Numbered from the whole stretch's first letter, positions 3,631 to 60,748 are shown. The stretch is DNA of 63,720 bases, filler included, from Psammoneis japonica (GCA_008632985.1; 3 parts of 3 records of this genome joined end to end with filler, not necessarily neighbours in it); one strand, 5' to 3'. Notes: generated by a model not told the origin, from the sequence alone. Translations and numbers: made by a program.

Positions 3631-3940
3631 GCTTCTTGTGTGGACAGTTGCAGAAAAAGCACAGCACTTGACAGAGCAGATGGACTCCTCCAGTCCATGG
3701 GATGTTGCTGGGTGCCAAGAACACACCACAGAAAATGAGGCACATCACTTGGCCAAGGCCAAAAGGCAAATTGACAGGACCTCACTGGGTGGTCAACTCG
3801 GGACAGCTGATGGGCTGATTGAAGACACTGCAGAAGGCTCCTGAAAAAGCACATCCCTTGGCTTTGCGGACAATCAAGGTAATGGGCATTGCCAGGTGTC
3901 AATTGCAGGACATCTGATCAGCTTGTCAATGGCACCACAG

Positions 3941-13034: not shown

Positions 13035-13099
13035 GTACAGAAAGTCAGCAAATTTACGCAAATTTAGCAAGTTATTTTGCACTGTCACAGTCGCCTGAG
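12973..13099. repeat. 64-bp tandem direct repeat between the convergent SET and TET/JBP-like genes
   Basis: acagaaagtcggtaaatttgcgcaaat...cacagtcgcctgag (12973-13035) and acagaaagtcagcaaatttacgcaaat...cacagtcgcctgag (13037-13099). Confidence 0.85.
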
Positions 13100-14517: not shown

Positions 14518-14847
14518 GGTGTGTCTCAATTTGAAATGTGTTTCAAAATGTGATGACGGAAGTGTTGTCGCGTTGTTTTTGTCTCCGCGGAGGGAGGATC
14601 ATCCCACGGCAATCTCAGTGCGAGTTCTCGCGTAGAAGTGCGTTGCGTGCCGTGCCAGCTCGTGCGTTTGAATTACACGGACACACAAGTGCGGCAACGA
14701 TGAGAAGCAGGCTGAGATTCAAAACAAATTTTACCGCCTGAAGGCGTCTTGTCATTTCAACGCGTCTGCACATCTGTTTAAAATGACTTCACACGTCGCT
14801 CCATGCGCAGGTAGAGGCAGCACACCGCGTTTGAAAATTTCGCGCGC

Positions 14848-15404
14848 GTGGAGGGCGCGACGGTAATTTTACGCATTCTGCGCACGTCACAGTTTGGTTT
14901 GGAAATGCGACGTCTGGTCGAACCCGCTGCAAGCAAGGTTGATGTTGCCACAAGGTTGGATGCGATGAACCATCGTTGCAGAAGTGTTGGGGAGTTTTGT
15001 CTTCAAACGGCTCCGGACTCCGCGTTCCAGAGCAGGCGTGTCTCCGGAGACGGAAGCGGATCTTCGCACGGCGGCGAAGTTGGCTTCGCTTTGAGCAGCG
15101 AAGTGTTTTTGAACGAACGCCTTCTTGGCGTGAATCACACCTGCGATGCATCTGTCGACATGGGCGGGGGAGTTGCCGGACCCAGCATCGGGCTCAAGTT
15201 ACTTCGTCGCCGTTGCACCGTGGTGAGCATCGAGGCCGACCACGATCGTCACCAAGAGGCTGTACGTTGGGCTCATCGTGCTGGCCTTCGCTCGAACGGC
15301 GGGTTAGAGTTGATCAACAAGTCATTCTTGGACGAGAGGCTGGCTCCTTTGTGGAAAAAGAAAGGACTCAAGGTGTTCTTCAACAACTGCAACTCCCGCA
15401 TGGT
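14848..15404 (+). pseudogene. DOT1-like class I SAM-dependent methyltransferase fragment (truncated by gap)
   Basis: VDMGGGVAGPS (motif I), VVSIEADHDRHQEA (acidic post-I motif), ELINKSFLD (GDFL-like) and KVFFNN (DOT1-type vfxNN) in the expected order and spacing. Runs into the N gap at 15405. Confidence 0.55.
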
Positions 15405-15851: not shown

Positions 15852-18790
15852 GCTCCATCAAAGAGACAGCCACAATTGGAGGGTCTGACCCAGGCAACAC
15901 CTCATGTTGGTCATGTTGAATTTGTCCAAGAGGAGGAAGGCACAGAGACAACAAACTTGAAAACAGCTGTTGCAATGCTCACCATGCAAAGCAAGATGAT
16001 TTGTCACCTCTGCCAGAAGATGGAAATGCTGCAGAGGGAGGCAAAATGCCGGTGGCTCTTGTTTGAAGGCTGTCACAGCAGAAAAAAGATGAGGAAACAA
16101 ACCTTGCAACAAACAAACACTCTGCAAGCAAAAACACTGTTGAACAGTGCCCAGACCTCATGAGGAATTTTGCTCTCATGCATGCATGAGAACCCAAGAA
16201 ACTTGCCTCCAAAAAGCATCCCATGATCTGTTGCAAGAAGCGTGCTTGTCTGGTCTTCTGTGAATTGCAGACCTCCAGCAGAGTCAATCCAGCATCCAAA
16301 GACAAGCTCAGCTCCAGCACTGTGGATCTGAGATCATCTGCATGTTGGAAATCCAAACAAAGTCCATTGCTTTTGCTCATGTTTGTGAAGGCCTCATTGC
16401 TGCTGCAGCACTTGTTTGCTCAAAAACTCTTGAATGGCCAGACTTCAGCACAGCTGTTGCAGCACTGCTTTGACATGAAACAACAAAGCAAGAAGTTGAG
16501 TTGATCAAGAGCCATTTTGTGGCAATGACGTGCATGCACAACAGCTGATGTTTGGTGCAAGGTGCCTGTGAGATGCTGTTTGATGATCTTGGATTTCTTA
16601 GAAGCAAGGTGCTGAGGCTGCTGATGGTGGCACAAAATGACCAAGATGTTCTAAGTCAGATGTTTGCTCCCACACCATGTGGCTGTCAGCAAACAAAGTG
16701 CAAAGTGAAAGAGTTGAGAAAATGCTCAGTTTGAACAAAACAAAGTTGCCATCTCATTCAAGCTCCTGGCTTTCAACAGAAGACATCAAAGACAAGTTGC
16801 TGGAAGACCAACTAACATCGATGTGCTGCCAGTTTTCTGTTGCAAAATTTGAAAGCTTCCCCCAGTTCTTGGTGGCCTTTGTTCATGTTGGAGCTCTCAT
16901 CTGTTTTGTGTGATGAAGAGAACAGACAATTGGTGAGTTCACGCAAGACAGCCTGCCAGCAGCAAGCAATGTGGGAGCTTTTTTTGCACATGATGAGCCA
17001 AACTTACAATGGAAGAAAAGAGCTTGTGCAAAGTGCAACCTGACAAAGGTGGCAAACACATCAAATGCAAAATTTGAAAATGGTTTTTGAATGGCTGAAA
17101 ATTGCAACAGCCTTGAGTTTCTTTGACTCAAATGCTTTGCACTTGAGGACAGTGCAGCTGGTGACAGCATTTTTGATTTTGGCTCGGGCAGTGCTGGGAG
17201 CACTCTTGAGAATGCAAAGTTGTGGAAAGCCACAGGTGCAATGAAAGAGAAACAGCTTTCAATGGTGGGGCTTTCATTTGAACTTGTGTGTGACTTGGTG
17301 ATTGTGCCACTGGACAACCCTGGGTTTGAGAGCTGTGCCATGGTTGTGCTGGCCAAGACTGAGTGAAAGAGCAGTTGACCAAAACACACTGCAGCTCTTT
17401 GTCATGTGGCACCCATCATTGCTGGTTGCTGGGGTGGAGGCCCCCATTTTTTGTGATTGGAGCACTGACAGCCAAAGTGAGTGCTTTGTGCACTGCACAT
17501 TTTTTCTGTGGCACTGGCAATGGGAGACATTGTTTGTTTGTCAGAGCTTGTCAGCTGGTGCAAAATTTGTGGCCAGCTGAAGAGCAATGAGTTTCTTCTG
17601 TCACATTTCTTCCAGACCATTGATCCTTTTGCAAGAGCTGATTTTCCCATTTCCCATTTGTTCCACGTGCAGGTGGGCTTTGTCACAAATAATTTTTGCT
17701 CCCAATCAAGCACAAATGGGTCACAACAAAGCTGAGTGATCCTGGCAAAATCCAACCAAAGCCAAACCACAACTGGCGCTGCCCTGTTGACAAATGTTTC
17801 ACCACACAGTTTCATGGACATCAGCAAACTGGAGCCCACAATTGGGAAAGTGAGCTCACCCTGCCCAGGGCTGCAAATTTGTTTAAAGTCCACAAATGTC
17901 CCAGGGCTCCATTGACTCAAAAGTGTCATTGCTCAACAACGCGCTCAACACCTCATGAGTTCAGTCAATTTCCAGAATGTGTTTGCCATCTGCAGACCCA
18001 ATGATGCAAAGACCCTTTTGCCGTGTGAGTTTTCACTGTTTGCAAACAGCTCCTGAAATGAGATGATGAAGAACTCCTGGGTTCTCTGCAATGCACCTGG
18101 TCCCACTGAGTGCTTGCAAACAAGGGCGGGGGTTGGGCAAAGGAAAAAACTCAACAGCGCCCCTTTGGCCAGTCATTTGGAAATCATGTTGAAGCCCTGC
18201 CAGTGCAGGGCCCCAGACATGCCATCCATCAAAGGGATGAGTTGTGAGAGACTGAGTGTTTTGTCATGTGCAGCGCTGTCTGTTTCAAACCTGGAAGCCC
18301 CCCATTGCCTTTCTTGTGCTTCTTTGCTGAGGCCAGAGAAGTTGATCTAAGGACACACCCTCATTGTTGCAACAAGCAGCACAGGAGAGCTGAGGCATGA
18401 AACAGCACATCAACAGGAACAAGCAGAGCTCACACTGGCACTGTGCACCATTTTAGTTGGATGATGCAGATGGCGACATGACCTTCCATGCAGCAACAAT
18501 GGAAGCATCATGCATGCCACCCGTGCAATAAAAAGCGAAGTCGAAAACGCAATGAAATGTGCAGCAGCACTGCAAAATGCTGGCCCTTTTAATCAAAACT
18601 GCAAAGCCACGGATAACACAAACAAAGCACGATAACCTAAAAGGAAGATGCTGCAGTGCGAAAATACTTTCTTGTCACATTCTAATTGCAGATTAAAAGA
18701 TGTGACACATTCCACAAAACCAAAGAGAATTCTCCAGGCCTCGTCACTGACACGTGCGACGCCAAAGCGTCAAACCTCCACAAACCTAGG
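15852..18790. mobile_element. Heavily degenerate region depleted in TpA and CpG (probable transposon relic)
   Basis: Same composition as 200-5052. No intact ORF. Composition returns to normal near 18800. Confidence 0.5.
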
Positions 18791-44210: not shown

Positions 44211-47200
44211 AGAATGCACTCATGAAAAGAGCACAAAATGGCAGCTGTGATGAATGTCCATCTGTCCCCTCATTTCCAGCAACACTGACAGAAGACAGTC
44301 TTGAATTTTGTTCAGGCCAAAATGCATCCAAACAACATGAAAAAGAACACAGTGATTGGGGCTCATTGGGCACATCCTTTGGGTCTGCAAGGGTGGCCAG
44401 GCCTCATGCAAGAGATGAGCATGATCCCAGAAGCCATTCTTCCCACTGCTGCTTTGTGGAGAACAAGCCACAAATTGCACAACACACCAGAAAGAGCAGA
44501 GTCAGTTTCAACAGCATCATCAATCAAAGCAAGTCAGCCCATTGTTTGGCCTGCCACCAAAATTGTCAACACATGCAGGTGTCGAGCTCAAAATGCCCAA
44601 CTCCAACAAGAATGCAGCCTTTGAGCACTGCAGAAAAGGGGAGCTGTGGCACAGACAAAAGAGCTGATGATCTTTGCACACACTTCTTTCCAACTGGCAA
44701 CCCCCCATTGATGCACTTTGCTCTGCCACAGAGAAAAAAGCTTTCCAAACATTTCAAACATTTGCTGCAGGAGTGGGGAGCTTCTGTGACACAGTGCAGC
44801 ACAGCATTCTTTGAACTGTCAAAACAATCTCAGCCTTGTGGGCCTCTTCAACAAGCTGCTGATTTTCTGTGCCTTCCTCATGTGTGGCAGAGAACTGCTG
44901 TTTCACCACACAATCAAAGCCGGCCAACTCATGTTGCTCCTCATGCCAGAGCTGCAAAACATTGTCAACCAAGGTTGTGAGTGAGCTGAAGGATGGAAAA
45001 CTTCCAAACTCCATGACCTTGTTTTTCTTTCACACTGGTCTTGATTGCTGTGCATGCAACAAAAAACAATGTTGGTGCTGCGAGACCATGGAGGCAAGCC
45101 TGGTTTGAAATTTTGAGCAAGCTTCCAAGCAGAGCTTGCCAGGTGTTGCATGGAGAGCAACAGTTTGTGCATTGGAGCACAATCATGCTGCTGTTGCAGA
45201 AAGTTTGGAGGTGAGATGAGTTGGGGATGTACTTGCCAATGTTGTCTTTTTGACTGTTCCCCACTGAGCCACCACAACAGCAACCTTTTGTGTTTTGACT
45301 TCATTTCTGCTGTCTCCATCTTTTGCGTGTGTGAGGTTGACAGCTGGGCACAGCACACATCTCCTGCTGCTCATGGGCATTGTTTGGAGCACCTGTGTCA
45401 ACTTCTGATGAATTCTGTGCATCGCTTGTGATTGCTGCTGCCAGCAAATTTCTGTCCTCCCAATCTGTGAGCAGTGCCCAAGACTCAAAGAACACAATTG
45501 TTCCTTCAAGAAGGCATGAAGGCATCATCCATTGAAATGGCAAAGATGTCTTGAAGATTGCAAGGAGCTGGCCAACATCAGAAGGTGTGATGGTCTTTCT
45601 CTGCAGGAATGAGCAGCACGATGATGCTGCCTCTCTTTGACCTTGTCATGTGAAAAAAATGCACCCAACCCCATTTTCCTCTTGAAGATGGCCATCAGCT
45701 GCTGGTGTCTTCAGCAGGTCATGGCATCATCCAAACAAGCCACTGTGCACAAAGAACCTCTCACTCTGACAATTTGACAACCCAAGGAGCATGTTCTTTC
45801 AAGACACAGATCCCAGCTCCACCACAATTTTCTGAAATTAAGGTGCGACAACTGATCTTGATGCAAGAGATGCAGGAGCTGTGCCAGGAAAACCATGTTG
45901 CAATGTGAGCCCTTTTTGGCATGGCTGCCAATGAAAGTCCAAGGGGTTTGAGCAGAAGTGGGCAACACAGCATCATTGACAAACTGCTGCACAACCCCAA
46001 AGTTGAGTTTGCTGGTGCTTGTTGCTTCTTGTGTAGAATGTGTTGCCATTTTTTGCTTGGACCTGCCAGTCTTGAAAGATCATGGCTCATCAATGTGTCA
46101 CCCAGAAGTTCAAAAGAGAAAATGAGTCAGCCAGGAGTCCACTGCAAATGACCCAAATTTCAGAGTGAGGGTTTTGGCTGGGTTTGTTGGTGTTGCCACC
46201 CTTGTTTGACATTTCCATGTGCTTGACTTGGTGCTTGAGAGCATGGCAAACTTTGGTCATCACGCAGCCACAGGAGCTCACTCTGTGCAGCATGCACTTT
46301 TGGCAGCCTTCTTTTTTGACTCATGATCAGTGACTCAGTGTTGTCTGTTCTGCAGCTCTGTTTGTGTGGAGCTTCACAGAGTGTTTGGTCCAGGATGCCC
46401 CCCCTCAAACTGCTGCTGCTCAACTCACTCACAGAATGAAACAAATTTGTTTGTGGGGTGTGAGCCAATGTGTTGAAGTCCTGCAGAGTGATGTGGCACT
46501 GCCAATGCGCATGTTTGGTGCTTGGCACTTGAGCACGTTGACCATCTCATCAGCCAGCAATGGCAGCAGAATTGCTGAGCTGTTGTCCATCACATGTGTG
46601 GAAACTGGCCAGCACAACTTTTGAACTCAAAACCTCTTGTTCCATGCTTGCAAATCTTGACATCAGCTGGCTTGCATGTGAAATGTCACAGACAATGATT
46701 CAAAGATGCTCTGCATCACTTTTGTCATGCAGCTCTCCAATGACAAGCTCTTCTTTGTCATGCCACACTCTTCAGCAGAAGTGCTCTCAGATGCCATCAG
46801 AACACATGCACAAGCAAAAACTCAGCTGGGCCAGGGTGCTGTTTTGGCCTGAGAACATGAACTCAGAGCAGCACTGGAAGTTCATCTGCTCCTTGAAGAA
46901 CTGTCCAGGTCTGCCAGATTGTTGCAGAGCTTGTGCACTCAGCAGGCACTCACCCTTTTCTGCAGATCCCTCTTTTTGCTGGACAACTTCTTCATGGTCA
47001 GTTCTGTGGCATCAGTCTGGCTGACATGCTGCAGCTCTTCAACATCACAGATTTGCAACCTCGCACACCATCATGTGATGGCAACATTTCTTGCTGCGCC
47101 CCATGCCCCAACAGGTGTCAAAATTGAGATGGGCAAAACAAAAGCATTTGTGCAAAGCTCACAAGCCCACTTTGTCCCAAAGTGAGATCTCACAAACAGA

Positions 47201-49700
47201 TGCCAAGTTCCCACTTGTTTGCATTTTAGATCATGTCAAAATTGCAGCTGTTTGCATTTTGTGTTGTGCCCCATGAGCCATGGTCACATGTGTGCTCCAG
47301 ACATCCTTCTAGATTTGCCTTAGTTGGGAGCCACACCCTCCTTGGATGGTGCTTCACAGGCACACCTGAGCAGTGCTGCACTGCTGCACACAAGGGGCAG
47401 CTGCATGGTGTTGCCATGCCGGCCTGTGGGTGCATGCTGTGTGATTGCATTTTTCCTCATTTTTGTGAGAAGAGTGATGGACTCTGTCAACTGGCTGGGA
47501 GCAAGCACTGTCTGCAAATCTACACAGGCTGATGGCCAGCAGACAGGCTGATGGCTTTTGCACTGCTCTGGCTTTTTTCATGACCACATGGACATTTGAA
47601 ACACAGCTTGGTTGCATTGGCTGAACAAAAAAACCCAAACCTGTCATGTGACCCTTCAACCACCAGGGGGAGCAAATCTCCACGGGTGGACATTTGCTCT
47701 GCTTGAGGATTCGTGATGTGTCGTGCACATTTACAATGATGCAATGAGCACATTGTAAAAATGTCACATGGTGCACAATCTGCGTAAAGTGCACCTTGTG
47801 CATTTGCTCGTTGGGAGCAAACATCCACCGGTGGAGATTTGCTCCAAGGGTGTGGTGTCATTGCTCCATTGTTTGTGACAGCAATTCATGACAACCTGCA
47901 TGGTTAAAGGTTGAGATTTAGTTCCTCTCTGTTCATGGATCAAGCTTGCAAAAACCCTGTGGCAAAAGTCGACATTGAACTTTCTAAATTGCAAAAATGG
48001 GTTCCCCCAGATTTTCATTGAGTGCAAGTTCCAAAACAAAATCGTGCAAATGAAATGTTGTTCATGTCTGAAATTGCTTCATTTGCCATGTTTGTGATGC
48101 AAGCAAGCAAATCTCCACCCATGGAGATTTGCTCAAGTCTGGTGGTTGAAGGGTTGAAGTGCTGTCACACCTTTGCCCAGCAAACACCGGGGCATCTCCT
48201 TGGAGATGCCTCGGCAGTGTCATGGTGTCTTCCATCCTGCCAGACAATGAGGGCTTCCTTTGGCTGGCCTTGTTTCTGCTCGTCTCATCCATCCTTCAAC
48301 CCATTTTGCTGCTGCACTTGCGCAGCCACTCTTGGTCCAGCCAAGGAGGTCCTCTCCTTGCTGGGCTTGGAGTCTTGGCTGCAATCCAGTGCACCCTGCA
48401 AGGGGTGTGGCAGAAGTTGTTGCAACTGGCTGGCTGTGGTGCCTCTGGATGGAGACTCCCAATGGAAATGGTCAAAACACAGAACACAACACTCAGAGTT
48501 TTCTGCAGTCTTGCTGGTGACACACATGTTGGTTGTGCCACAACCACAGAGGACAGTTGCATTTGGGAAAAAAATCAATGGGAGCCACAAAGGAAGCCAA
48601 AAGGGATTCTGGAATTTGCTTGAGTGACAGATGCCAACTGGCACAATGAGGCATCTCATTTGCACACCTTGAGGAACTGCAGCAAGAACAGCAAGATCAC
48701 CACTCAAAGCAGCAAGCTTGGTTGGCCAGCAGATGGAAGCAAGGTGGCACAGGACTTGCAGGTGTGAAACAAGAAGCCATGTGGATGGACTTTGTCAGTG
48801 GTCTGAAAAACATTTGTCTCGTGTGGAAACCACCATGCCGGATCCTGCGTGGACACACTGACATGTGCTGCAAAAGGATGGTCATTGCTCAGTGCCAAAG
48901 GAAGACTCACTTTGATGCTCATCAGCACTGCAACAGAGGAGGCACTTTCACAAAATGGAGTGAAGCACTTGATTGGCGGATGGAGATGAAGAAGGTTGTT
49001 GAGGACCAATGGGGGTTGCATGCAAGCAGTTTGGAGCATTGACGCAACAGTCGTCGGCGGGGTTGTTGCTGTCATGCACAGAATTTACACTGGAATCCAT
49101 GCAGAAAATTTCTTGAGTCTGCAGAAAATTGTGAAAAAATTTCAATGAGCATGTGAACCAGTTATTTTCCACTTAGAAGTGCTGCTTGATGTGCTCAAGT
49201 GAGGGTGTGCCGCTGGTTGAAATGGCCAGAATGGCCTTGAGAGACCCAGCGAAATGCCGTCTGAGAAGAAGGGCAACATCAGTGCGGGAGCACACACACA
49301 GAAACACACACAGGTGTTGTTGGTGGGTGGCTGTGACAGATTTGTGCATTGGCTGAACAAGAAGACTGAGCCATGAAAAATGGATTGAGGAAACCACCCT
49401 GACTGGCAAAAAAGCTTTTGTCGTCAAAATGTGTTGCTGAGGCATTTAAACAGGAATTTTTATGGCGTCCATTTTTGAATGCAAAAATCACTCACATTCA
49501 CACTGATTGCACACAAAAACGAGAACATGAAGCACCGTGATCAAAGCACGATGATGACGGCAATGTCGACATTCCTCCAAAATGCAGTGGTCCGTTCTCG
49601 AACATTTGGTGTGTGTGTGTGTGTGACCTTTGACACACAACAAACATGAAATGAATGAGAGTTGGCAGATGGACCACCTCCGTCACAGACTCACATGGAT
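44211..49700. mobile_element. Heavily degenerate repeat region depleted in TpA and CpG (nested transposon relics)
   Basis: Near absence of TA and CG over ~5 kb; dense spurious Cys/His-rich ORFs; contains a TIR element at 47652-48153. Confidence 0.6.
47652..48153. mobile_element. piggyBac-like non-autonomous TIR element (MITE relic), ~500 bp
   Basis: Left end cccttcaaccaccag, right end ctggtggttgaaggg (exact reverse complements). Flanks GTGA and TTGA, consistent with decayed TTAA target sites. Three copies of a ~30-bp palindrome gagcaaatctccac-nn-gtggagatttgctc at ~47670, ~47815 and ~48105. Confidence 0.7.
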
Positions 49701-50575
49701 TGATGTTTTCACCACGTTGCAGCACGGTGAAATTCAGAACAAATCATGCAAATCACGAGCGATTCGGCCAAATTCGAGCTAAAAAAGCAGCAAATGTTCC
49801 CCTAAATTGACAGTCATTTTTGTCAGAATCATCGCCTAATCTGCGCGACCCCATCAGCGAACACGGAAGGCGGACAGAGAGCGAGCAGAGTTTTCATCTG
49901 ATGACCCTGTTTAGGACATAAATGTCCTTAGACAAATGTGTGCTTTTATGAAGTACATTAAAAGTGACACTCGGACGTCTCAACGGCATGGGACACATGC
50001 AAACGGATGGATTTTGTATCATGCAGTTGTGTTGATGATGACATGACCGACAAAACGTTCTGCGAGCACATTGATGTCGTGACAATTCTGTTGTTTCCGT
50101 CCTGTTGCCAGCACCGCCGATTGGCACACCACGAGCTCACACTTCATCCGTTGAGTTTGGTTTCTGTCGTGTCGCTTTGTTGGCACCATTGCCACTTGCG
50201 AACGCAATGCCGTTTCCCAATCCATCTGGCGACGTTTACGATTGGGAATCATTTTTGGCGATGACATGGTCGTAGTTTTTGGTCGCGGGGTCACATTTTT
50301 GTCACCAAAATCGCTCTCACAAAATAAAATTCGTTGCAGCGGATGGTGATGAGAGGACAGCAGCAAGAAGATGAAATGCGCATGGGCAGTTGCTGTGATG
50401 CTGCCTTGCGTTGCGCAGGCTGGGACGAACGGTCATGTGCAAGAAACCCAAGATGCCCAACAGGTGCGTAACTGAAAATCATTCCCACATGCCGTCAAAC
50501 TCTCATTTTCTAACTCTGAACAAATTCTGAAATCCAAACTGTAACATTCTACGCAGACAATCGCCGAGAAAGTAT

Positions 50576-53500
50576 TTGGCATCTTCCGAAGGACCAACAA
50601 GCCTGACAGCAGTGGCAGAGGCATGCCACTTGAAGGACTCAAATGCTGGGACAGATGCGAATGCTCCCAACCATCTTTCGGGGCATGAAGCCGGCAAACG
50701 ACGATGCACGAAGACTCGACACACCAGTGCAGACGCATTGTGTTCCCTTCCCAGAACAGGACTTACTTGGAGACTTTGCCATCCTGAATTCCGCGGCGGA
50801 GCCGCCCGTTCAGTCGATGGTCTCGATCGCCATCACCGCACCAAATACAGAATTTGGCTTGATCACTTTGAAGATGGTTTTGACACGGATGCAACCATTC
50901 CAAATCAGGCTGCGACTCAAATTTGGGGTGACAATGATTGCTCGAATGGCTTCATCCAGATGTTGATAGCTGTTCCGATGGCGACGATGTCTTTGAGCCT
51001 GGAGATGCATTGTCATTCAAGAATCCATCATGACAAACGCAGACGGACAACAAGACACTAGCGCGTGCGCAGCTGGAATTAGTTCCGCATGCCAAGTTAA
51101 CGGAGGGGACAAGATCCAGTCTTCCTTTCCAATTGCAATGACGCGTGGAGGATGCAACGAGGGTGTTGGATCTCCAATGGCAGGTGCTGTTGAAGTTTAT
51201 GACACTGATCTGTGGGGGGGCATTTCATCGTGCCAGTTGGCGAAGATACCATTGACGCAGAAGACGAGCCATTTGAATGCACAGTCGTCTGTGTGACGGC
51301 GTCTCAGGACGGGACAGAAGTAATGCTAAACGGAGACTTGGTTGTCACATTGAATGAAGGCGAGAACCACGTCTTTCAACACGTAAACGAGAATGATCAG
51401 ATCACAGCGACCAAGCCTGTGCAGGCCGATCCAGCTGCCGGTGACATTGATGAGAGCTACGAGATGCAATGGTGTGCTCTTCTGCCGACAGAACTCTGGG
51501 CAAACCAGTGCCACACCCCCGTAGGAACTCAAATGGACCAGAGACGTGGAAGCATGAATAACACGGCTGTGTGGCTCTTCAACCCCTCCTCCGCCCCCCT
51601 TGAAGTTACACGCGAAAGAATCGTCTCAGGAACTGAGATCATTTCTTCCACCGTGTTGGCCGGCAGAGGGGCACGGTTGTCAACGCCATCCCTGCCGGCT
51701 CCGGAGCTAGGTTCAGCGCATCTGATAAGTTTTTCGGCTTGACTCAGACAGACTCGATAAGTGGTTCGCTGCGACATGACTGGGGACACCCCTTGTTGTC
51801 TGCGAACCAACTCACGTTTCAAGCACTGTTGGATGGGGCTTCGCTTGTACAAACAACGACTGCGGGACTAAATCGATGAAAAGCGTTGTGTGGGTGACAC
51901 CTTCCGCGGGATTCGACTGTGTGTGTCGACTGCGACGGGGATGGACTATTTGATAACTCTCACCCTGTTTCGGAGCTCCAGTCTGTCAGAATCTCCGACC
52001 CTGCCGATCAAGATGTGACCGGAGCGACAGCATTTGCTGCTACAGGCGGCCCTGACGACCCAACGGTGGACATCACGGTTGCTTGGGGTCAAGATCCTTT
52101 CGCGTCACATGGCTCTCAGACTTACTCGTTGGACCTTGGAACAACAGTGCCCCCGCCACCTATTCTTTCTGCTGGAAAAACTGCGTCGCTCCTTCACGAT
52201 GCTGACGGAGACAGAAAGGTTGGTTCAGGTGACACTATCTTGTACTCAATTCGAGTCACGAATACTGGAAGAGCCGATGCGCCAAAAAGTGGCTGGAATG
52301 TGATCGACTTCTATCAGCCAATGCTGGATGCCGGAGAGTGCGTGACAGGGACCACCATGTGCAATGATGGAACTGAAATGATCCCCATCCCAGATGACGA
52401 ATCTGGCACTCCTTTCCCTCTTGACGGCGAAGGTCTGGCCAGTCCGTCGACTTTGACTGCGGGAGGGGCACACGAAGTCACATTCGAAGTTGCCATAAAG
52501 CAAAACATTGATGATTTGGAAGCAGGGGTCGATCGAATTTCCAATGCTGGAGAGATCAACGGAAACAAATCCAATCAGTTTCAAACTGCGATGCTTCTTC
52601 ATTTTCATCCCGACGTTGAGATCCAAAAACAGTTTTGGAAGGAGAACGTGACGGCGGTGACTGTCCTGGGTCAGAATCTTTGGAAATCAAGAGAGGCGAT
52701 CCAGTGACATGCTGCCACCACGTGATCAACACGGGAAACACCTGGTTGAGTGGGGTCAAGTCTCAGATGCTGTTGTAAGCCCTGAATTTTCCGAACCACT
52801 GCCGATGGCCTTAAGTCCCGGAAGCTCTCAAATGCTTGCCTTTCCAACCAACATTGATGGCAGTCAATTCAGTGCGGCTACAGTGTCAGGGATCGCCACC
52901 TGCAAAGACGGAGAAACGGTCATTCGTCGATTCCAGGCCCCTGTCACATCTACAGATGCCGCCGGTGTTGATGCACTCTTTGCGCCAATGGCAAATGATG
53001 ACAGCTACACTGCCACTGAAGAGACCCCAATCCAAGCTGCTTCCCCAGGTGTTCTTTTGAATGACAGTGATGCAAACAATGACGTTTTGACGGTGACTCT
53101 ATTGACGAATCCAGCTCATGGATCTCTTTTACAAAATGCAGACGGCAGCTTCACACACACACCAGAAAAGGACTTCAATGGATCGGATTCCCACACATAC
53201 AAGGCCTGTGACCACATTGGTCTATGCGATGAAGCGAAAGTCACGATCGACGTCACTGGAGTGAACGATCCACCATTGGCTGTTGACGACTCAATCACGA
53301 CAAAAGAGGACACTCCCGTGATGATCGATGCCAGACCCAACGATGGTGACGTTGACGGCAACATGGACTCGACTAGTGCCACGATACATTCTCAGCCAGC
53401 TAACGGAGTGGCCGTTAGGAATGAAGATTGCACCTTCACTTACACACCGGAATCCAACTTCCATGGAACCGATTCATTTGAGTACATCATTTGTGATTCT

Positions 53501-56500
53501 GAAGACGAGTGTACAAAAGCAACCGTGTTTGTCACAGTCATCGGTGTGAACGACGCACCTGCCACAATGGACGACACCACCAACACTTTGGAAGACACTC
53601 CTGTCACAGTTGACGTTGCAGAAAATGACATCGACATTGAAGGTGACCTAGACCCCAGTACAGCCGAGGTTCTTTCGCCACCATCCAATGGACAAGTGGT
53701 CAACAACGGCGACGGTACTTTCATGCACACTCCTGCTCCAGACTTCAACGGCGACGATTCTTTCGCGTACAAAGTGTGCGACATTAGCGGAGCATGTGCT
53801 TCGGCCACCGTCAATGTCACTGTTGTCGGCGTGAACGACGCACCTGTCGCTACAGGCGACACCACCAACACTTTAGAAGACACTCCTGTCACAGTCGACG
53901 TCGCAGAAAATGATCTCGACATTGACGGTGACCTAGACCCCAATGCAGCTGAGGTTCTTTCACCACCATCCAACGGACAAGTGGTCAACAACGGCGACGG
54001 TACTTTCACGCACACCCTGCTCCAGACTTCAATGGCGACGATTCCTTCACATACAAAGTGTGCGACATTGGCGGAGCCTGTGCCTCGGCCACCGTCAACA
54101 TCACTGTAGTCGGCGTGAACGACGCACCTGACGCTTTGGACGATGCCGTGACTGCGCCGGAGGAGACGCCAATTACGATCGTCGCCGCAGAAAATGATCT
54201 CGACATTGACGGTGACATTGACACCAACACAGCTGAGGTTCATTCGCCACCATCCAACGGACAAGTGGTCAAAAACGGCGATGGCACATTTACACACACT
54301 CCCGAAAGAGACTTCAATGGCGACGACACCTTTGGCTACAAGATCTGCGACACCAGCGGAGCTTGTGACACGGCTGTCGTCATCATTGCTGTTGTCGGTG
54401 TGAATGATGCACCTGCCGCTAAGGACGACAACACCAATGCTTTTGAAGACACTCCTGTCACAGTCGACGCCGCAGAAAATGATCTCGATGTTGACGGTGA
54501 CCTCGATCCTAGTGCAGCTGAGCTTCTCTCTACACCGTCAAACGGACAAGTGGTCAACAACGGCGACGGTACCTTCACGTACACTCCGGTGCCAGACTTC
54601 AACGGCAACGATTCTTTCACCTACAAAGTGTGCGACATTGGCGGAGCTTGTGATGCGGCTGCCGTCACCATTGCTGTTGTCGGTGTGAACGACGCACCTG
54701 ACGCTGTGGACGACACCACCAACACTTTCGAAGACACTCCTGTCACAGTCGACGTTGCAGATGATGATCTCGACATTGACGGTGACCTTGACCCCAGCAC
54801 AGCTGAGGCTCTTTCACCACCATCCAATGGACAAGTGGTTGACAACGGCGATGGCACTTTCATGTACACTCCTGCTCCAGACTTCAACGGCGACGATTCT
54901 TTCACTTACAAAGTGTGCGACAATGGCGGAGCATGTGCTTCGGCCACCGTCAATGTCACTGTCGTCGGCGTGAACGACGCACCTGACGCTTTGGACGATG
55001 CCGTGACAACGCCGGAGGAGACACCAATTACGATCGTCGCCGCAGATGATGACCTCGATGTTGACGGTGATGTTGACCCCAGTACAGCAACTGTTATTTC
55101 GCCGCCATCCAACGGACAAGTGGTCAACAACGGTGATGGCACTTTCACTTACACTCCAGAAAAAGATTTCAACGGCGACGATTCCTTCAGCTACGACATC
55201 TGTGACATTTCCGGAGCTTGTGCTGCGGTTGTCGTCACCATTGACGTCGCAGGTGTCAACGATGCCCCAGACGCCTTGGACGATGCTGTTAGCACTCCAG
55301 AAGAAACGCCAATCACAGTCAATGCCCAGAAAAACGACCTCGATGTTGACGGTGACCTAGACCCTAGTGCAGCGGAGGTTGTCTCTCCACCATCCAATGG
55401 ACAAGTGGTCAACAACGGCGACGGAACCTTCACTTACACCCCCGAACAAGACTTCAACGGCGACGATGCTTTCAGCTACAAGATCTGCGACACTAGCGGA
55501 GCTTGTGATGTGGCCACTGTGATCATTGCTGTGGTCGGTGTAAACGACGCGCCTGTCGCATTGGACGACACCGCCGACACTTTCGAAGACACTCCCGTGA
55601 CAATCGACGTGGCAGAAAATGATCTCGACATTGACGGTGACCTAGACCCCGGCACAACTGAGGTTGTCTCTCCACCATCAAACGGACAAGTGGTTGACAA
55701 CGGCGACGGCACTTTCACGTACACTCCGGCACCTGACTTCCACGGAGAAGATTCCTTCACGTACGAAGTGTGCGACATTAGCGGAGCCTGTGCTACGGCT
55801 GCCGTCTCGATTTCTGTTGTCGGTGTGAACGACGCACCTGTCGCAATGGACGACACCACCAAAACTTTCGAAGACACTCCTGTCACAGTCGACGTTGCAG
55901 AAAATGATGTCGACATTGACGGTGACCTAGACCCCAGTACAGCCGAGGTTCTTTCACCACCATCCAACGGACAAGTGGTCAACAACGGCGACGGTACTTT
56001 CACGTACACTCCTGCTCCAGACTTCAACGGCGACGATTCTTTCACGTACAAAGTGTGCGACATTAGCGGAGCATGTGCTTCGGCCACCGTCAATGTCACT
56101 GTTGTGGGCGTGAACAACGCACCTGTCGCTATAGAAGACACCACCAACACTTTAGAAGACACTCCTGTCACAGTCGACGTCGCAGAAAATGATCTCGACA
56201 TTGACGGTGACCTAGACCCCAGTGCAGCTGAGGTTCTTTCACCACCATCCAACAGACAAGTGGTCAACAAGGGCGACGGTACTTTCACGTACACCCCTGC
56301 TCCAGACTTCAACGGCGACGATTCTTTCACGTACAAAGTGTGCGACATTAACGGAGCATGTGCTTCGGCCACCGTCAATGTCACTGTTGTCGGCGTGAAC
56401 GATGCACCTGACGCTTTGGACGACGCCGTGACTGCGCCGGAGGAGACGCCAATTGCGATCGTCGCCGCAGACAATGACCACGATGTTGACGGCAACATTG

Positions 56501-59500
56501 ACACCAGCACAGCAGCCGTTGTCGCAGAGCCATCCAAGGGATTTTTGGCAAACAACGGCGATGGCACCTTCACATGCACTCCCGAAAGAGATTTCAACGG
56601 CGACGACACCTTTGGTTACAAGATCTGCGACACCAGCGGAGCTTGTGACATGGCTGTCATCATCATTGCTGTTGTCGGTGTGAATGACGCACCTGCCGCT
56701 AAGGACGACACCACCAATGCTTTCGAAGACACTCCTGTCACAGTCGACGCCGCAGAAAATGATGTCGACATTGACGGTGACCTCGATCCTAGTGCAGCTG
56801 AGCTTCTCTCTACACCGTCAAACGGAAAAGTGGTCAGCAACGGTGACGGTACCTTCACGCACACTCCGGTGCCAGACTTCAACGGTGACGATTCCTTCAC
56901 CTACAAAGTGTGCGACATTGGCGGAGCTTGTGATGCGGCTGCCGTCACCATCACTGTTGTTGGTGTGAACGACGCACCTGCCGCTGTGGACGACACCACC
57001 AACACTTTCGAAGACACTCCTGTCACATTCGACGTCGCAGAAAATGATCTCGACATTGACGGTGACCTCGACCCCAGTGCAGCTGAGGTTCTTTCGCCAC
57101 CATCCAACGGACAAGTGGTCAACAACGGCGACGGTACTTTCATGTGCACTCCTGCTCCAGACTTCAACGGCGACGATTCTTTCACGTACAAAGTGTGCGA
57201 CATTAGCGGAGCATGTGCTTCGGCCACCGTCAACATCACTGTTGTCGGCGTGAACGACGCACCTGACGCTTTGGACGATGCCGTGACTGCGCCGGAGGAG
57301 ACGCCAATTACGATCGTCGCTGCAGATGATGACCTCGATGTTGACGGTGATGTTGACCCCAGTGCAGCAACTGTTGTCGTGGAGCCATCCAATGGACAAG
57401 TGGTCAACAACGGTGATGGCACTTTCACTTGCACTCCAGAAAAAGATTTCAACGGCGACGATTCCTTCAGCTATGACATCTGTGACATTTCCGGAGCTTG
57501 TGCTGCAGCCATTGTCACCATTGACGTTGTTGGCATAAACCAAGCCCCAGAGGCCTTGGACGATGCTGCCAGTGCTCCAGAAGAAACGCCAATCACAATC
57601 GATGCCCAGAAAAATGACCTCGACATTGACGCTGACCTCGACCCGAGCACAGCGGAGGTTGTCTCTCCACCATCCAACGGACACGTGGTGAACAATGGCG
57701 ACGGAATCTTCACTTGCACCCCCGAAAAGGACTTCAACGGCGACAACACTTTCAGCTACAAGATCTGCGACAGTGGCGGAGCTTGTGACATGGCTGCCGT
57801 GATGATTGCTGTGGTCGGTGTGAACGACGCGCCTGTCGCATTGGACGACACCACCAACACTTTCGAAGACACTCCCGCGACAATCGATGCCGCAGAAAAT
57901 GATCTCGACATTGACGGGTGACCTAGACCCCGGCACAGCCGAGGTTCTTTTCTCCACCACCAAATGGACAAGTGATCAACAACGGCGACGGCACTTTCAC
58001 GTACACTCCGGCACCTGACTTCCACTTAGACGATTCCTTCACGCATGAAGTGTGCGACATTGGCGGAGCCTGTGCTGCGGCTGCCGTCTCAATTGCTGTT
58101 GTCAGCGTGAACGACGCACCTGTCGCTGTGGACGACACCACCAACACTTTAGAAGACACTCCTGTCACAGCAGAGAAAATGATCTCGACATTGACGGTGA
58201 CCTCGAACCCAGTGCAGCTGAGGTTCTTTCGCCGCCATCCAACGGACAAGTGGTCAACAACGGCGACGGAACCTTCACTTGCACTCCCGAAAGAGACTTC
58301 AATGGCGACGATGCCTTTGGCTACAAGATCTGCGACACCAGCGGAGCTTGTGATGCGGCTGTCGTCATCATTGCTGTTGTCGGTGTGAATGATGCACCTG
58401 CCGCTAAGGACGACACCACCAACACTTTCGAAGACACTCCAGTCACAGTCGACGCCACAGAAAATGATCTCGATGTTGACGGTGACCTCGATCCCAGTGC
58501 AGCTGAGCTTCTCTCTACACCGTCAAACGGACAAGTGGTCAACAACGGCGACGGTGCCTTCACGCACACTCCGGTGCCAGACTTCAACGGCGACGATTCT
58601 TTCACCTACAAAGTGTGCGACATCAGCGGAGCTTGTGGTGCGGCTGCCGTCACCATTGCTGTTGTCGGTGTCAACGACGAACCTGTCGCACTGGATGACA
58701 CCACCAACACTTTCGAAGACACTCCTGTCACATGTGATGCAGCGGAAAACGACCTCAATGTTGACGGCGACCTCAACCCGAGTGCAGCGGAGGTTGTCTC
58801 TCCACCATCAAACGGACAAGTGGTCAACAATGGCGACGGAACCTTCACCCACACTCCGGCACCAGACTTCAATGGGGATGATTCCTTCACGCACACAGTG
58901 TGCGACACCAGCGGAGCTTGTGCTGCGGCTGTTGTCGCGATTGCTGTTGTCGGTGTGAACGACGCACCTGACGCTTTGGACGACGCCATCAACACTTTCG
59001 AAGACACTCCTGTCACAGTCGACGTCGCAGAGAATGATCTCGACATTGACGGCGACCTTGACCCGACGACAGCAATTGTTGTTTCGGAACCGGCAAACGG
59101 TGAGGTGGTCAACAATGGAGACGGAACCTTCACGTACACTCCAGACGGCGACTTCCACGGTGCAGATACCTTCACTTGCCAAGCATGTGACACTGGCCAA
59201 ACATGCGCAATGGCAACGGTCAACATTGTTGTTGGCGGTGTCAATGACGCGCCAGTCGCTGTTGCGGATGCAGTGACAACCCCCGAGGACACTTCGGCAC
59301 AAGTCAACGCCATGGCCAATGACCTTGATGTTGATGGCGATCTCAACCCAACTACGGCAACGATTGCTGCGCCGCCTGCGAGCGGTGAGGTTGTCAACAA
59401 CAGTGATGGAACCTTTGCGTGTGCTCCCGAGCCAGACTTCAATGGCAAAGATGCCTTCAGTTGCCGTGTGTGTGACAGCAATGATGAATGTGCGACAGCT

Positions 59501-60748
59501 GCCGCAACGATTGTTGTCGAGCCTGTCAATGACCCTCCCGCAGCACAGAATGACAATTTCGTCATGGAGGAAGACGCTGCACTCGACATTTTGATTGGCG
59601 CAATCTTGGAAAATGACAGTGACACGGATGACAACCTCGAGCCAGCCTCGTTCACTCTTACGTCAAATGCGACGAACGGAGCTGTTGTGAATCAAGGAGA
59701 CGGAACACTCCAGTGCACTCCCAACCCCAACTTCAATGGAGTTGACCAATTCCCATGCACCATCTGCGACACGGCTGGTCGCTGTGATGATGCCATTGTT
59801 GCAATCACAGTGAACTCTATCCTAGACCCACCTGCTGCCCAGGACCTTGGATTTGTCATTGCTCAGGATACAGAGTTGTTTCTTCCCGACAGGGCTGGAA
59901 TTAAGCAACCTCATTCATGCGAGAACGGCACCTTTGGATGCGCCAACGGTTCGAGCGCTGGTGTTTCCGACCCGGACTCGCCACTCGACGAGTTGATCAT
60001 TGCCCTGAAGGATCAGAAGAGTCAGTTTGGTGGGGATGCTGATGCCACAGCCAATGGCGAATTTGCGTGTGAACCCGCGCAAGGCTTTGCCGGCATGGAT
60101 TACGCGGAGCATTCGGTTTGTGATCTCGACAATGTGTGTGACACCGGAATGATTGAGATTACGGTCATGCCAGCAACCGAGCGTGATGTTTCCGTTTGCT
60201 GGGGAGACTGGACTCAGGTGGAGTGCGACTCGGAAGAATCCATTGTCGGTCACTTTTACGTCTCAAATGATTCGGCTGGAGACAGTGTTCAGATTCAATC
60301 CTTTTCTATCGCGTTCGAGTACCTGATCAGCGGTGGAACACGAGGTACCAGCACTTGGGCGCCATTTGAAGTGGTTGGCTGCGTTTTTGACGAAACCACC
60401 AGGACCATGCTTTGCTCGAACGACTTGGTTGTCGAATTTGAACAGTGTGAAGCGAACGAATGCATCCCACCAGGCACAGAGATTCGTGCCACGGTCTCGG
60501 TTGATATTTTCGGTAGCATGTCGAATGACCCAATCAAGACGGCCCTCTCGGATAGCAAATCTGCCGTGAAGGGTGTGTTCCGTGATCCAAAGGAACCGGA
60601 CGGTCGTGTCACCCAAGGCAGATGCTCGGATGCTCCCGACGCTCCCTCTCGTGGCAAAGGCTGTAAAGGTGGAAAGTATAATTCTCCCACCCCGGCACCT
60701 ACCCGCGGAAAGGGCGGAAAAGGAAATCGAACAAGAGCTCGCAAGTAA
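50576..60748 (+). pseudogene. Giant secreted adhesin-like protein: N-terminal bacterial-type domains (DUF11-like), ~25 tandem 95-aa Ig/cadherin-like (Big_9/tandem-95) repeats, basic GKGGKG tail; many frameshifts
   Basis: Repeat consensus VNDAPxAxDD...EDTPVTVDVAENDxDxDGDLDP...PSNGQVVNNGDGTFTYTPxxDFNGDDSFTYKVCD. DUF11-like LSAGKTA..DADGDRKVGSGDTILYSIRVTNTG. Frameshifts near 54015, 57918, 58170 and several upstream. True start not located. Confidence 0.8.
52990..60170 (+). repeat. 285-bp coding tandem repeat (~25 units) with 2280-bp higher-order periodicity
   Basis: Diagnostic unit variants recur at +2280: 54121/56401, 54421/56701, 55021/57301, 55561/57841. Confidence 0.93.

Follow-up and report, generated by a model that had tools for sequence, protein, structure and literature searches.

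The known kinds of context-specific hypermutation directed at unwanted DNA, namely RIP, the APOBEC enzymes and the decay of 5mC, work by C-to-T chemistry. Adenine is the target in the A-to-I hyper-editing of double-stranded RNA by ADARs, enzymes that to our knowledge occur in animals only and whose 5′ neighbour preference is U, A > C > G. Diatoms carry DNMT4 enzymes related to fungal RID, whose function is left unassigned where they are described (PMC9998398). The 5hmU of dinoflagellates, which like diatoms are SAR protists, is a TET/JBP thymine modification that prefers TpA (TpC is also preferred), is enriched on repeats and helps to silence transposons, and the account of it describes no mutational outcome (PMC11572971). 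Hypermutation directed at TpA did not come up in full-text literature searches, whether for diatoms or for other eukaryotes. Here we describe a locus in the genome of Psammoneis japonica (GCA_008632985.1) at which, we think it probable, a regional, context-specific transition process, TpA → TpG/CpA, erodes a bacterial-type tandem-95 gene in a diatom genome.

The window, by which we mean the whole stretch of 63,720 nucleotides that was analysed, filler included, contains an array with a TRF period of 285 and 19.7 copies; unit alignment shows units 1, 2 and 23–25 to be divergent, and a 2280-bp higher-order repeat lies within the array (windows offset by 2280 are up to 95–97% identical). The ~95-aa tandem units score above the curated NF012211 cut-off of 90 bits (936.6 bits in 13 stretches for a 1287-aa piece, and 398.9 bits for an 847-aa piece), which makes this a tandem-95 gene, and Pfam PF17963 (Big_9) matches the array with E = 4.7e-267. 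The predicted fold of one unit is an Ig-like beta sandwich (pLDDT 90.7), and the closest solved folds to this model are Ig/cadherin-like domains. A search of 1.84 billion representatives gave the C-terminal domain only six relatives with E ≤ 1e-3, two of which (P0079, encoded by an Anaerolineales MAG, L001, and P0242) have a tandem-95 array and then the same domain. No similarity to P0079 was found in the N-terminal ORF, and Pfam gives a weak DUF7507 match (E = 0.005) for the non-repeat ORFs upstream of the array. The gene, whose stop codon is at 60746–60748, shares its diatom scaffold with eRF1, ACCase and MSH6; a homologue search with the 1287-aa piece, covering proteins of 707–2253 aa, gave only bacterial-type matches of ≤56% identity and no diatom orthologue among the 120 listed of 3583. 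Judged from its sequence, what the first-pass annotation called a protein-coding, non-transposon gene appears to be just that, a tandem-95 gene of bacterial type whose dN/dS stays below 1 (0.26–0.87 between sister units). Table 1 lists the features of the locus and its surroundings.

Table 1. Positions of the features discussed, counted from the first letter of the window
Feature	Position	Strand	Details and basis
25-unit array, ~285 bp (95 aa) each; tandem-95 repeat / Big_9 / Cadherin_5 gene	52976..60172	+	TRF, NCBIfam, Pfam, unit alignment
Tyr61 codons, 25; motif anchor +12 to +14	53156..60070	+	10 TAC, 7 CAC, 6 TGC, 2 TGT
Tyr75 codons, 25; 42 nt beyond Tyr61 codons	within array	+	19 TAC/TAT, 3 CAC/CAT, 3 TGC
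Tyr75 codon of unit 24: window TGC (Cys), second X1 version CAC (His)	59756..59758	+	59756 T>C, 59757 G>A
C-terminal domain, unique part of gene	60152..60748	+	rare relatives, array + domain architecture
Non-repeat ORFs upstream of array, within same TA-poor zone	51209-51742, 51898-52707, start of 52661-54109	+	ORF calling
1-base gap, unit 4, frame shift in window	54015	+	ORF calls, unit alignment
Two extra bases, unit 18, in GGG run and TTTT run	57916..57951	+	unit alignment
Net 7-base deletion, unit 19	58165..58180	+	unit alignment; no indel listed there for run X1
TA-poor, CpG-normal zone, whole gene inside	49501..60500	.	TA rho 0.08-0.42, CG rho 0.78-1.22 per 500 bp; ends near the gene's stop
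Transposon-like block, TA and CG nearly gone, directly upstream of gene	44211..49500	.	composition per 500 bp
Second TA- and CG-depleted block	1..4500	.	TA rho 0.03-0.28, CG rho 0.04-0.56 per kb
Third TA- and CG-depleted block	16001..18500	.	TA rho 0-0.08, CG rho 0.04-0.16 per 500 bp
Second TA-poor, CpG-normal, GC-rich (0.51-0.61) zone, adjoining third block	11501..15400	.	TA rho 0.05-0.35, CG rho 0.61-1.38

Each unit carries a motif of the GTFTYTP type, the G of which lies at 53144, 53429, 53714, 53999, 54283, then 54568 + 285i (i = 0–11), and in the further units at 57990, 58268, 58553, 58838, 59123, 59408, ~59702 and 60056 (residues of units 24 and 25 were taken from the printed sequence). 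The first-pass annotation held that the tyrosine of this motif, a family consensus residue, had changed to His or Cys only, and exact counting bears this out: there are 10 Tyr, 7 His and 8 Cys in the 25 units and nothing else. We aligned 1840 units from 120 bacterial homologues, and position 61 in them is Y 1663, F 165, L 5, I 3, G 2 and V 2 with neither H nor C, so that Tyr is indeed the consensus, and homologues tolerating C or H, which the annotation had named as the observation that would speak against it, were looked for among these units and not seen. H and C together make up 15/25 of the window's units vs 0/1840 bacterial units (Fisher p = 4e-31), and nine bacterial arrays taken as DNA gave 155 Y and no H/C among 170 units. 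Phenylalanine, the sole accepted substitute in bacteria, is absent from the window's 25 units. Position 75 of the same 1840 bacterial units is Y 1667, C 5 and H 0, and 6/25 codons are H/C there in the window. Among the 19 in-frame units Tyr61 is retained in 9 and Tyr75 in 16, and the other 18 of the 20 positions that are ≥80% conserved in bacteria are retained in 17–19. Since Tyr75 has the same local context as Tyr61 (CGTACA) and is kept in 17/20 core units, selection must filter what the mutations leave behind, and the constraint on Tyr61 in this gene must be weak.

Smaller observations of the annotation hold as well: the site agtaca also appears as agtgca and agcaca (the column pair is TA 3, TG 10, CA 6 and GA 1 in 20 core units), and ACG has become ATG (FM for FT) in three units (53714, 54853 and 57133). 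The string ttt-gcg-tgt-gct is present, but it starts at 59414, not 59411, and reading it as three TA → TG changes presupposes TTT and TAT intermediates, the other units having ttc-acg-tac-act. As TTTGCGTGTG is found in unit 25 (60062) as well as at 59414, those two units need not be independent. We also looked for strand polarity, in the form of successive units sharing a TG or a CA outcome, and saw none.

Changes among the units were counted pairwise, after polarisation by column majority and on trees, polarisation resting on column majority and sister pairs rather than on an outgroup. With the units aligned and a tree built, as the annotation had proposed, mapping by dinucleotide context shows that TpA is hypermutable: A>G changes (or T>C on the other strand) on the 20-unit tree number 3.33 per column at TpA vs 1.30 at CpA, 0.97 at ApA and 0.30 at GpA, so that transitions outside TpA, which would have spoken against the annotation had they been equally frequent, are 2.6 to 11 times rarer. 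Third codon positions alone give 3.25 transition changes per column at TpA vs 0.86–2.0 in other contexts. The majority-TA dinucleotides, a class of only 12 columns (6 dinucleotides) of a single alignment, have a mean of 4.17 changes vs 1.68 overall, a value reached in 0/20,000 draws of a permutation matched for codon position; column 105 (CTA), which belongs to this class, changes from A to T or C and never to G. All three states, TA, TG and CA, also occur in columns 114, 240, 171 and 255, where the sites are synonymous or variable; CpG columns are not hypermutable (1.85 vs 1.68 changes overall), and in 9/9 bacterial arrays the top transition class is other than TpA. A simple pairwise measure does not discriminate (array TA 0.279 vs AT 0.250), and by the same measure TA is also top in a normal duplicated gene pair (0.274 vs up to 0.25). 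A union-based site test was dropped as biased by site ascertainment, and codon usage confounds any preference for flanking bases (NTAN). The counts of recurrent change could be raised by gene conversion between units.

The changes are recurrent and run towards loss of TA. The Y/H/C label requires at least 12 changes on a 23-unit tree that was built without both Tyr codons; the annotation's caution that units share ancestry through the 2280-bp duplication was right about the repeat, yet these 12 or more changes leave more independence than it feared. Its direction, TA loss, agrees with the Tyr consensus, with the sister units U05/U13 being H vs C, with 17 cases in which a TA of U05–U12 stands opposite TG/CA of its sister unit vs 2 of the reverse, and with TA being depleted, not enriched. 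Adjacent TG<>CA double differences number 19 among the 195 differences of eight sister pairs and 5 among 197 in the duplicated gene pair elsewhere in the window. The cause of the Tyr loss thus looks mutational and TpA-specific.

Loss of TA is regionally limited and is not confined to tyrosine codons. The array has a TA rho of 0.26 vs 0.57–1.14 in 40 bacterial arrays and is depleted in all three codon phases (O/E 0.37, 0.17 and 0.28 vs 0.58–1.31 in 9 bacterial arrays), and the O/E values by codon phase are 0.35–0.80 in the window's eRF1, ACCase and MSH6; the array lies below both bacterial arrays and host genes, so its composition is neither inherited nor host-wide. All 10 conserved Tyr of eRF1 are retained. 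The TA rho of the array is lowest at 57–60 kb (0.08–0.20) and highest at 55–56.5 kb (0.35–0.42), where the surviving Tyr (U06–U12) falls. Since the gene has a normal CpG content and no hypermutability at its CpG columns, loss of TpA can be told apart from loss of CpG. The block directly upstream of the gene has, per 500 bp, 0–7 TA (rho 0–0.19) and 1–10 CG (rho 0.04–0.40) with a TG/CA rho of 1.74–2.05; TG/CA rho is ~1.8–2.0 in the three depleted blocks, which have sharp bounds and other dinucleotides at normal content, and their loss of TA is read from composition alone, with no outgroup. Pfam gave no match in 15/15 ORFs of the block at 44.9–49.1 kb and none in 9 of 10 other ORFs, including 11215–12216, 13318–14595 and 14815–15402. 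ORF 13085–13855(−) has an Atlas score of 0.96 to a cluster with PF12851 in 19% of its members, a weak TET/JBP lead; sequence comparison gave a TET/JBP identity no support (no Pfam match in the ORF or its three relatives, no PDB profile match), and the single-sequence fold of the ORF has a pLDDT of 31.9. The 1-kb gene duplicate of 81% identity at 37271–39869 is not TA-poor, so the process appears not to be simply repeat-triggered.

Run X1, which may be the sample from which the window was assembled, carries a second version of the locus that is 5–7% different and has independent outcomes (the comparison covers 8 of 156 records listed, and 44 records fit two places in the stretch). The 34 events in this version (from 40 of 217 differences listed) include at least 5 TA losses, at least 10 CG losses and at least 6 TG<>CA doubles, and TA opposite a window TG/CA was never seen among those 40 differences. 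The His codon at Tyr75 of unit 24 is from one X1 contig of 352 letters with 17 differences. Two other runs, X2 and X3, gave nothing that could be placed on the window.

Could selection account for the pattern instead? Cys and His are typical metal ligands, and they might be favoured or freely tolerated at position 61, as ligands or in new disulfides. The remainder of the domain is under purifying selection (the dN/dS values above, with motif residues invariant), and constraint at position 61 is relaxed, as Tyr61 changes as fast as synonymous TpA sites and Tyr75 is mostly kept. However, one and the same position has become H in one copy and C in the other, both between sister units and between the two versions of a single unit; F, accepted in 165/1840 bacterial units, is never seen; TpA at synonymous sites and at junctions is just as hypermutable; and TA is depleted in the non-repeat parts of the gene too (O/E 0.13–0.56 by codon phase in the upstream ORFs). 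Position 61 also lies in strand 58–63 of the unit model, beside the invariant F59, and is probably a buried core residue. We therefore regard selection for the new residues as unlikely.

Ordinary decay or amelioration, in which a dying or horizontally acquired gene drifts to host composition under the usual transition excess and H and C are simply the transition neighbours of TAC, seems to us an equally poor prospect. The window copy does have frame breaks (54015, 57916–57951 and ~58170), host genes are moderately TA-poor, and transitions make up 139/195 of the sister-pair differences, at which rate the chance of 12/12 changes being transitions is 0.017, which is not extreme. However, transitions outside TpA are far rarer per column, the conserved residues other than Tyr are intact, and the gene's TA value is below that of host genes and also below the rho of 0.75–1.19 reached by several 500-bp windows that lie outside the long ORFs listed, and so overshoots any host equilibrium. 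X1 contigs contradict at least three of the frame breaks, which have the look of homopolymer errors: window and X1 differ by homopolymer-type indels at 52624, ~52758, 57948 and probably 57917. For unit 18, X1 is one T shorter at 57948 (depth 33.7 of 33.7), a loose end lies at 57917, and the extra bases look like homopolymer-length differences between the assembly and X1; for the unit 4 gap, one X1 contig, which could be a misplaced copy of unit 12, inserts a T at 54015 (depth 42.4 of 72.4).

GC-biased gene conversion or concerted evolution in the array might mimic recurrent TpA mutation by passing A:T → G:C changes from unit to unit, since the higher-order repeats, of 2280 bp and others, mark the array as recombinogenic, GC content is higher in the TA-poor zones (0.51–0.61) than in the remainder of the window, and neighbouring units tend to share the H or C state (runs test by hand, z = −1.3, not significant). 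We consider it very improbable, because there is no general weak-to-strong excess (CA>CG 1.30 vs CG>CA 1.26, AA>AG 0.97 vs AG>AA 0.72, and GA>GG 0.30 vs GG>GA 0.48 per column), conversion is unable to make both CAC and TGC out of TAC, and TA depletion reaches the unique sequence that flanks the array. Systematic errors of base-calling or assembly where TpA (and CpG) is modified, or chimeric repeat collapse, are hardly credible, for although the assembly is not error-free (the homopolymer-type indels, and seven N runs totalling 1291 N), the errors seen are indels and not substitutions, the blocks are sharply bounded with other dinucleotides normal, and there are X1 contigs with 0 differences from the window over 225–426 letters, among them the TGC codons of U13 (at 56398–56646) and U17 (at 57477–57871).

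The reading we favour, regional TpA → TpG/CpA erosion, would work by A:T → G:C change at TpA on either strand. Tyrosine (TAY) would be exposed as the sole sense codon family obliged to contain TpA, other TpA being removable by synonymous or mild changes, so that the protein-level trace would be almost only Tyr → His (CAC) or Cys (TGC). The same process, together with CpG loss, would be near completion in the three transposon-like blocks, one of which adjoins the gene. It would most likely be the mutational side of a silencing of foreign or repeated DNA that reaches over the neighbouring gene, and the chemistry may be adenine deamination, or modification or oxidation of the TpA thymine. More tentatively, and with odds that we would put against it, there may be a dedicated DNA-level hypermutation defence, an enzyme-driven TpA → TpG/CpA change on both strands of silenced or foreign DNA with a chemistry new to genome defence. 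Such a defence would use adenine deamination in DNA, or TET/JBP-type oxidation of TpA thymine followed by mispairing, and with CpG deamination would drive its target DNA to a TA- and CG-free state, so that the tandem-95 gene would be seen early on, with TA loss only, and its second version further along.

If true, removal of TpA by A:T → G:C, near complete in kilobase blocks, would be a different chemistry from that described for other hypermutation of unwanted DNA, and diatoms have not been known to show such a signature before. With the family consensus as its internal ancestor, the repeat gene supplies the direction, rate and independence of changes, unlike the blocks. For such genomes there would also be a warning: what looks like adaptation in Tyr → His/Cys changes, in losses of TAA/TAG stops or in a seemingly high allelic divergence close to silenced DNA may instead be the footprint of mutation.

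The locus resembles fungal RIP (in Neurospora and others) in having dinucleotide-specific transitions on both strands, with the target step nearly eliminated in transposon-like DNA and a spill-over that affects a neighbouring gene and a gene made of tandem repeats. It differs in that RIP is C:G → T:A, mostly CpA → TpA, and enriches TpA, whereas here A:T → G:C removes TpA (TpA rho 0–0.4) and TG/CA is enriched; as to the duplication trigger of RIP, the array is repeated, yet the unique gene flanks are equally TA-poor and the 81% duplicate is not. Decay of 5mCpG by deamination has the same TpG/CpA end products and strand symmetry, and co-occurs with TA loss in the three blocks (CG rho 0.04–0.56) and among the events of the second version, but its signature is absent from the gene as it stands in the window (CG rho 1.08 in the array), and methyl-CpG deamination cannot remove TpA. 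ADAR editing likewise makes A → G changes on both strands with a strong 5′ T/U preference, but 5′ A is not favoured here (0.97 vs 3.33), and ADARs act on RNA, so that genomic fixation would need reverse transcription, a poor fit to an array that lies in place with its flanks; an RNA route is thus unlikely. Dinoflagellate 5hmU differs in that TpC (read as GA>GG, 0.30) is the least mutable context here, and mutation would be an indirect read-out of the modification. The gene itself is like the bacterial tandem-95 proteins (NF012211; Big_9, Cadherin_5, Cadherin_4) in unit length, motif and fold, and has the architecture of array plus C-terminal domain in common with the Anaerolineales protein; what sets it apart from them is its diatom scaffold, its eroded tyrosines and its low TA rho.

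The array whose units carry the FTYTP motif codes for a tandem-95 repeat protein (NF012211 score 936.6 bits, cut-off 90), in which Pfam recognises Big_9, Cadherin_5 and Cadherin_4. The predicted fold of one unit is an Ig-like beta sandwich (pLDDT 90.7), and the solved structures closest to it are Ig/cadherin-like domains from phage collars, dystroglycan and bacterial adhesins. The gene is of bacterial type: the 120 homologues listed of 3583 are at most 56% identical, every named one among them is bacterial, and homologue searches found no diatom orthologue. Two of the six relatives of its unique C-terminal domain are built alike (array, then C-terminal domain), one of them encoded in an Anaerolineales MAG. 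Within this domain (60152–60520, + strand) the diatom protein has V-G-H-F and two bacterial relatives have S-G-Y-F, a further Tyr to His change at a conserved site, seen in one alignment. The window is of diatom origin and carries eRF1, acetyl-CoA carboxylase and MSH6; its eRF1 is 90–93% identical to diatom proteins (best named, Ditylum brightwellii 92% and Odontella aurita 90%).

Coordinates of the repeat gene and of the TA-depleted regions of the window
Feature	Position	Strand	Basis and remarks
Tandem array, 25 units of ~285 bp	52976–60172	+	TRF period 285, 19.7 copies; unit alignment
Unique C-terminal domain of repeat gene	60152–60748	+	6 relatives among 1.84 billion representatives
TA-poor, CpG-normal zone around repeat gene	49501–60500		TA rho 0.08–0.42, CG ~1; stops at gene 3' end
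Block with TA and CG nearly absent, directly upstream of that zone	44211–49500		0–7 TA and 1–10 CG per 500 bp
Second TA-poor, CpG-normal zone	11501–15400		Dinucleotide composition
Block depleted in TA and CG	16001–18500		Dinucleotide composition; adjoins zone 11501–15400
Block depleted in TA and CG	1–4500		Dinucleotide composition

The first-pass annotation had claimed that the FTYTP tyrosine (Tyr61 of the unit) changes only to His or Cys, and its tally is borne out exactly: 10 TAC, 7 CAC and 8 TGC/TGT codons, with no others. A second conserved tyrosine 42 nt further on, Tyr75 (SFTYKVCD), obeys the same rule with 19 Tyr, 3 His and 3 Cys (n = 25; 23 units from the alignment, units 24 and 25 read directly off the sequence). 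The annotation had allowed that homologues might naturally tolerate Cys or His at position 61, and they do not: neither H nor C occurs there in the 1840 units aligned from bacterial homologues, 120 in number (Y 1663, F 165, L 5, I 3, G 2, V 2), compared with 15 of the 25 window units (p = 4e-31). At position 75 the same bacterial units have Y 1667, F 72, V 50, I 41, C 5, L 4 and T 1.

The effect tracks TpA, not tyrosine as such. In the 20 core units, a set without the too divergent U01, U02 and U23, the 12 columns in majority-TA dinucleotides average 4.17 tree changes compared with 1.68 over all 285 columns, a value attained in 0 of 20,000 draws of a permutation matched for codon position. Equally frequent transitions outside TpA, the other outcome that the annotation had considered, are not found: there are 3.33 per column at TpA and 0.30–1.30 elsewhere (CA>CG 1.30, CG>CA 1.26, AA>AG 0.97, TG>TA 0.96, AG>AA 0.72, GG>GA 0.48, GA>GG 0.30). 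The TpA excess is present at third codon positions (3.25 versus 0.86–2.0) and likewise at the first two (3.38 versus 0.18–1.12). Array TA O/E (observed versus expected) by codon phase is 0.37, 0.17 and 0.28 (0.23, 0 and 0.19 in U13–U23), and the shortage includes codon junctions, which do not depend on amino-acid content. Several columns hold TA, TG and CA without CG, namely AGTACA (TA 3, TG 10, CA 6), ATTAGC (TA 6, TG 7, CA 5) and, in the core units, Tyr61 (TA 9, CA 6, TG 5); additional columns are two-state TG/CA, with both TA and CG gone.

The direction agrees with the TA loss that had been proposed: across eight sister pairs, 17 TA sites of U05–U12 lie opposite TG/CA in the partner, compared with 2 in the opposite sense. 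Adjacent TG<>CA doubles number 19 in these pairs (38 of 195 differing bases), and 5 are present among the 197 differences between the copies of another, duplicated gene of the window. This control pair consists of tandem duplicates (37271–38344 and 38805–39869) that are 81% identical over 1064 bp and normal in TA content; the product is rich in Pro/Ser/Thr in its N-terminal part and conserved in its C-terminal part. A region-limited process speeds the transition from A:T to G:C at TpA, whichever strand is involved, and TG and CA outcomes are about equally common (8 and 7 at Tyr61). TAY is the sole sense codon family obliged to contain TpA, and the protein footprint is therefore Tyr to Cys/His; elsewhere TpA vanishes via synonymous or mild changes. 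The TpA rates, the direction and the bacterial baseline support the reading of the tyrosine changes as TA loss, and we consider a TpA-specific regional mutation process their probable cause.

Gene conversion between units could inflate our homoplasy counts, but it is incapable of yielding both CAC and TGC out of TAC. The transition classes of the 20 core units have no overall bias from A:T to G:C, which speaks against biased gene conversion. Host genes within the window have TA O/E of 0.35–0.80, and 10 of 10 conserved tyrosines are kept in eRF1. A number of 500-bp stretches that lie outside the long ORFs listed have TA rho 0.75–1.19, so the repeat gene did not merely drift to host equilibrium. 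Nor is low TA usual for such arrays, since TA rho is 0.57–1.14 in 40 bacterial tandem-95 arrays (GC 0.31–0.63) versus 0.26 here. The same analysis was applied to the 9 of these with at least 10 full units; TpA is the top transition class in none of them, and Tyr61 is Y in 155 of 170 units and H/C in 0, although saturation limits this control, the bacterial arrays being more diverged (mean identity 0.46–0.63). Finally, the kinship between units about which the annotation had worried accounts for almost none of the Tyr61 pattern, as at least 12 switches between Y, H and C are required on a tree of the 23 units that could be aligned, made without the two Tyr codons, and sister units are unlike (U06 Y/U14 H, U07 Y/U15 C, U08 Y/U16 C, U09 Y/U17 C, and U05/U13 H versus C).

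Some results fit poorly. In column 105 (CTA) the A changes to T or C and never to G. Tyr75 is mostly kept despite a local context like that of Tyr61, so selection filters the mutational input, and the diatom protein is surprisingly permissive of change at position 61. A simple pairwise measure gives TA 0.279 with AT close at 0.250 because of synonymous GAT/GAC sites; it ranks TA first in the normal duplicate too and so does not discriminate. No strand-polarity runs of outcomes were seen along the array.

The repeat gene shows no general decay. Among 20 positions that are at least 80% conserved in bacteria, 18 are kept in 17–19 of 19 in-frame units (a set that excludes U04, U17, U18 and U19, which have indels, and the too divergent units 24 and 25); the outliers are Tyr61 (9/19) and Tyr75 (16/19). 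Sister-unit dN/dS is 0.26–0.87, nearly unchanged without the Tyr codons. The frame breaks in the window are weak evidence for a pseudogene. Single-base indels separate the window from all or most contigs of X1, the sole public DNA run with the locus (share 0.61), at 52624, 52757–52759, 54015, 57917 and 57948. The X1 indels would mend the frame at 52624, ~52758, 54015 and 57948, and most of these sit in homopolymer runs; taking them as right would fuse ORFs 51898–52707 and 52661–54109 and clear two or three frame breaks. The window assembly probably has small indel errors at these 52624–57948 sites, and a 7-base deletion in unit 19 is the only frame break that X1 does not contradict.

Some X1 contigs equal the window (0 differences over 225–426 letters, U13 and U17 Cys codons covered), and at similar depth X1 also has a version that is 2–7% different (52815–53581, 59540–60504), 5–7% in unique parts (16/225, 24/336, 17/352). 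The two versions could represent highly diverged alleles, or else one of them could be a second copy. The 40 differences listed of 217 make up 34 events, of which 10 are CG in the window versus TG/CA in X1, 5 are TA versus TG/CA and a further 6 are TG<>CA doubles at adjacent bases, and none has X1 TA opposite window TG/CA; X1 is possibly the source sample of the window, and some in-array rows are possibly mis-laid paralogous units. One double is the unit 24 Tyr75 codon (window TGC, X1 CAC); thus Cys and His were reached independently in the two versions.

Within the array, TA peaks at 55–56.5 kb, where Tyr persists (U06–U12), and is lowest at 57–60 kb; TA per unit is 3, 6, 2, 5, 6, 6, 6 and 8 in U05–U12 and 1, 5, 3, 2, 2, 3, 2 and 3 in U13–U20. 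The block directly upstream of the zone has TG/CA rho 1.74–2.05 and is otherwise complex in sequence; Pfam recognised no domains in depleted blocks (15 ORFs at 44.9–49.1 kb). At the edge of the first block, just ahead of an N gap, lie three tandem ~330-bp copies (4133–5052, 74–94% identical). TA falls again at 62501–63720 (rho 0.08–0.24), with CG down to 0.67 at the window end, which may be the onset of another depleted block. The second TA-poor zone contains an ORF (13085–13855, – strand) with an H-x-D ... H pattern (near-)invariant in 3 database relatives; by protein-language features it adjoins clusters with 19% Tet_JBP members (score 0.96), it drew no support from Pfam, from a PDB search with its profile or from a single-sequence fold, and we regard it as a weak lead to a candidate thymine or 5mC dioxygenase beside hypermutated DNA. 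Another ORF (14815–15402, + strand), which reaches an N gap at 15405 and has no Pfam match, contains VDMGGGVAG, which by eye resembles motif I of SAM-dependent methyltransferases.

One process may strike the gene as well as the TA/CG-free blocks, the stage or dose differing between them; it would be part of silencing foreign or repeated DNA and would extend to the gene next door, presumably acquired horizontally. In this view the second version, with CpG lost as well, would be at a later stage. Adenine deamination in DNA is one candidate chemistry, from which the signature would follow directly; modification of the thymine of TpA is an alternative.

In dinoflagellates, 5hmU made by a TET/JBP enzyme occurs preferentially at TpA and TpC, is a mark of repeats and contributes to transposon silencing, and that study reports no mutagenic outcome (PMC11572971); in the window array TpC is the least mutable context. 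CpG decay is separable from the TpA process in the window, and ADAR hyper-editing resembles it in signature only. Diatoms possess RID-like DNMT4 enzymes that have no known function (PMC9998398). The window process acts like RIP leaking into neighbouring genes, but RIP changes C to T at CpA and enriches TpA; the window process is without that defining feature and is therefore not a RIP-family member. Full-text literature searches turned up no description of hypermutation directed at TpA, whether in diatoms or in other organisms. We rate the process as context-specific hypermutation of putatively silenced DNA in a new, TpA-directed form, and there is a substantial chance that its chemistry is categorically new.
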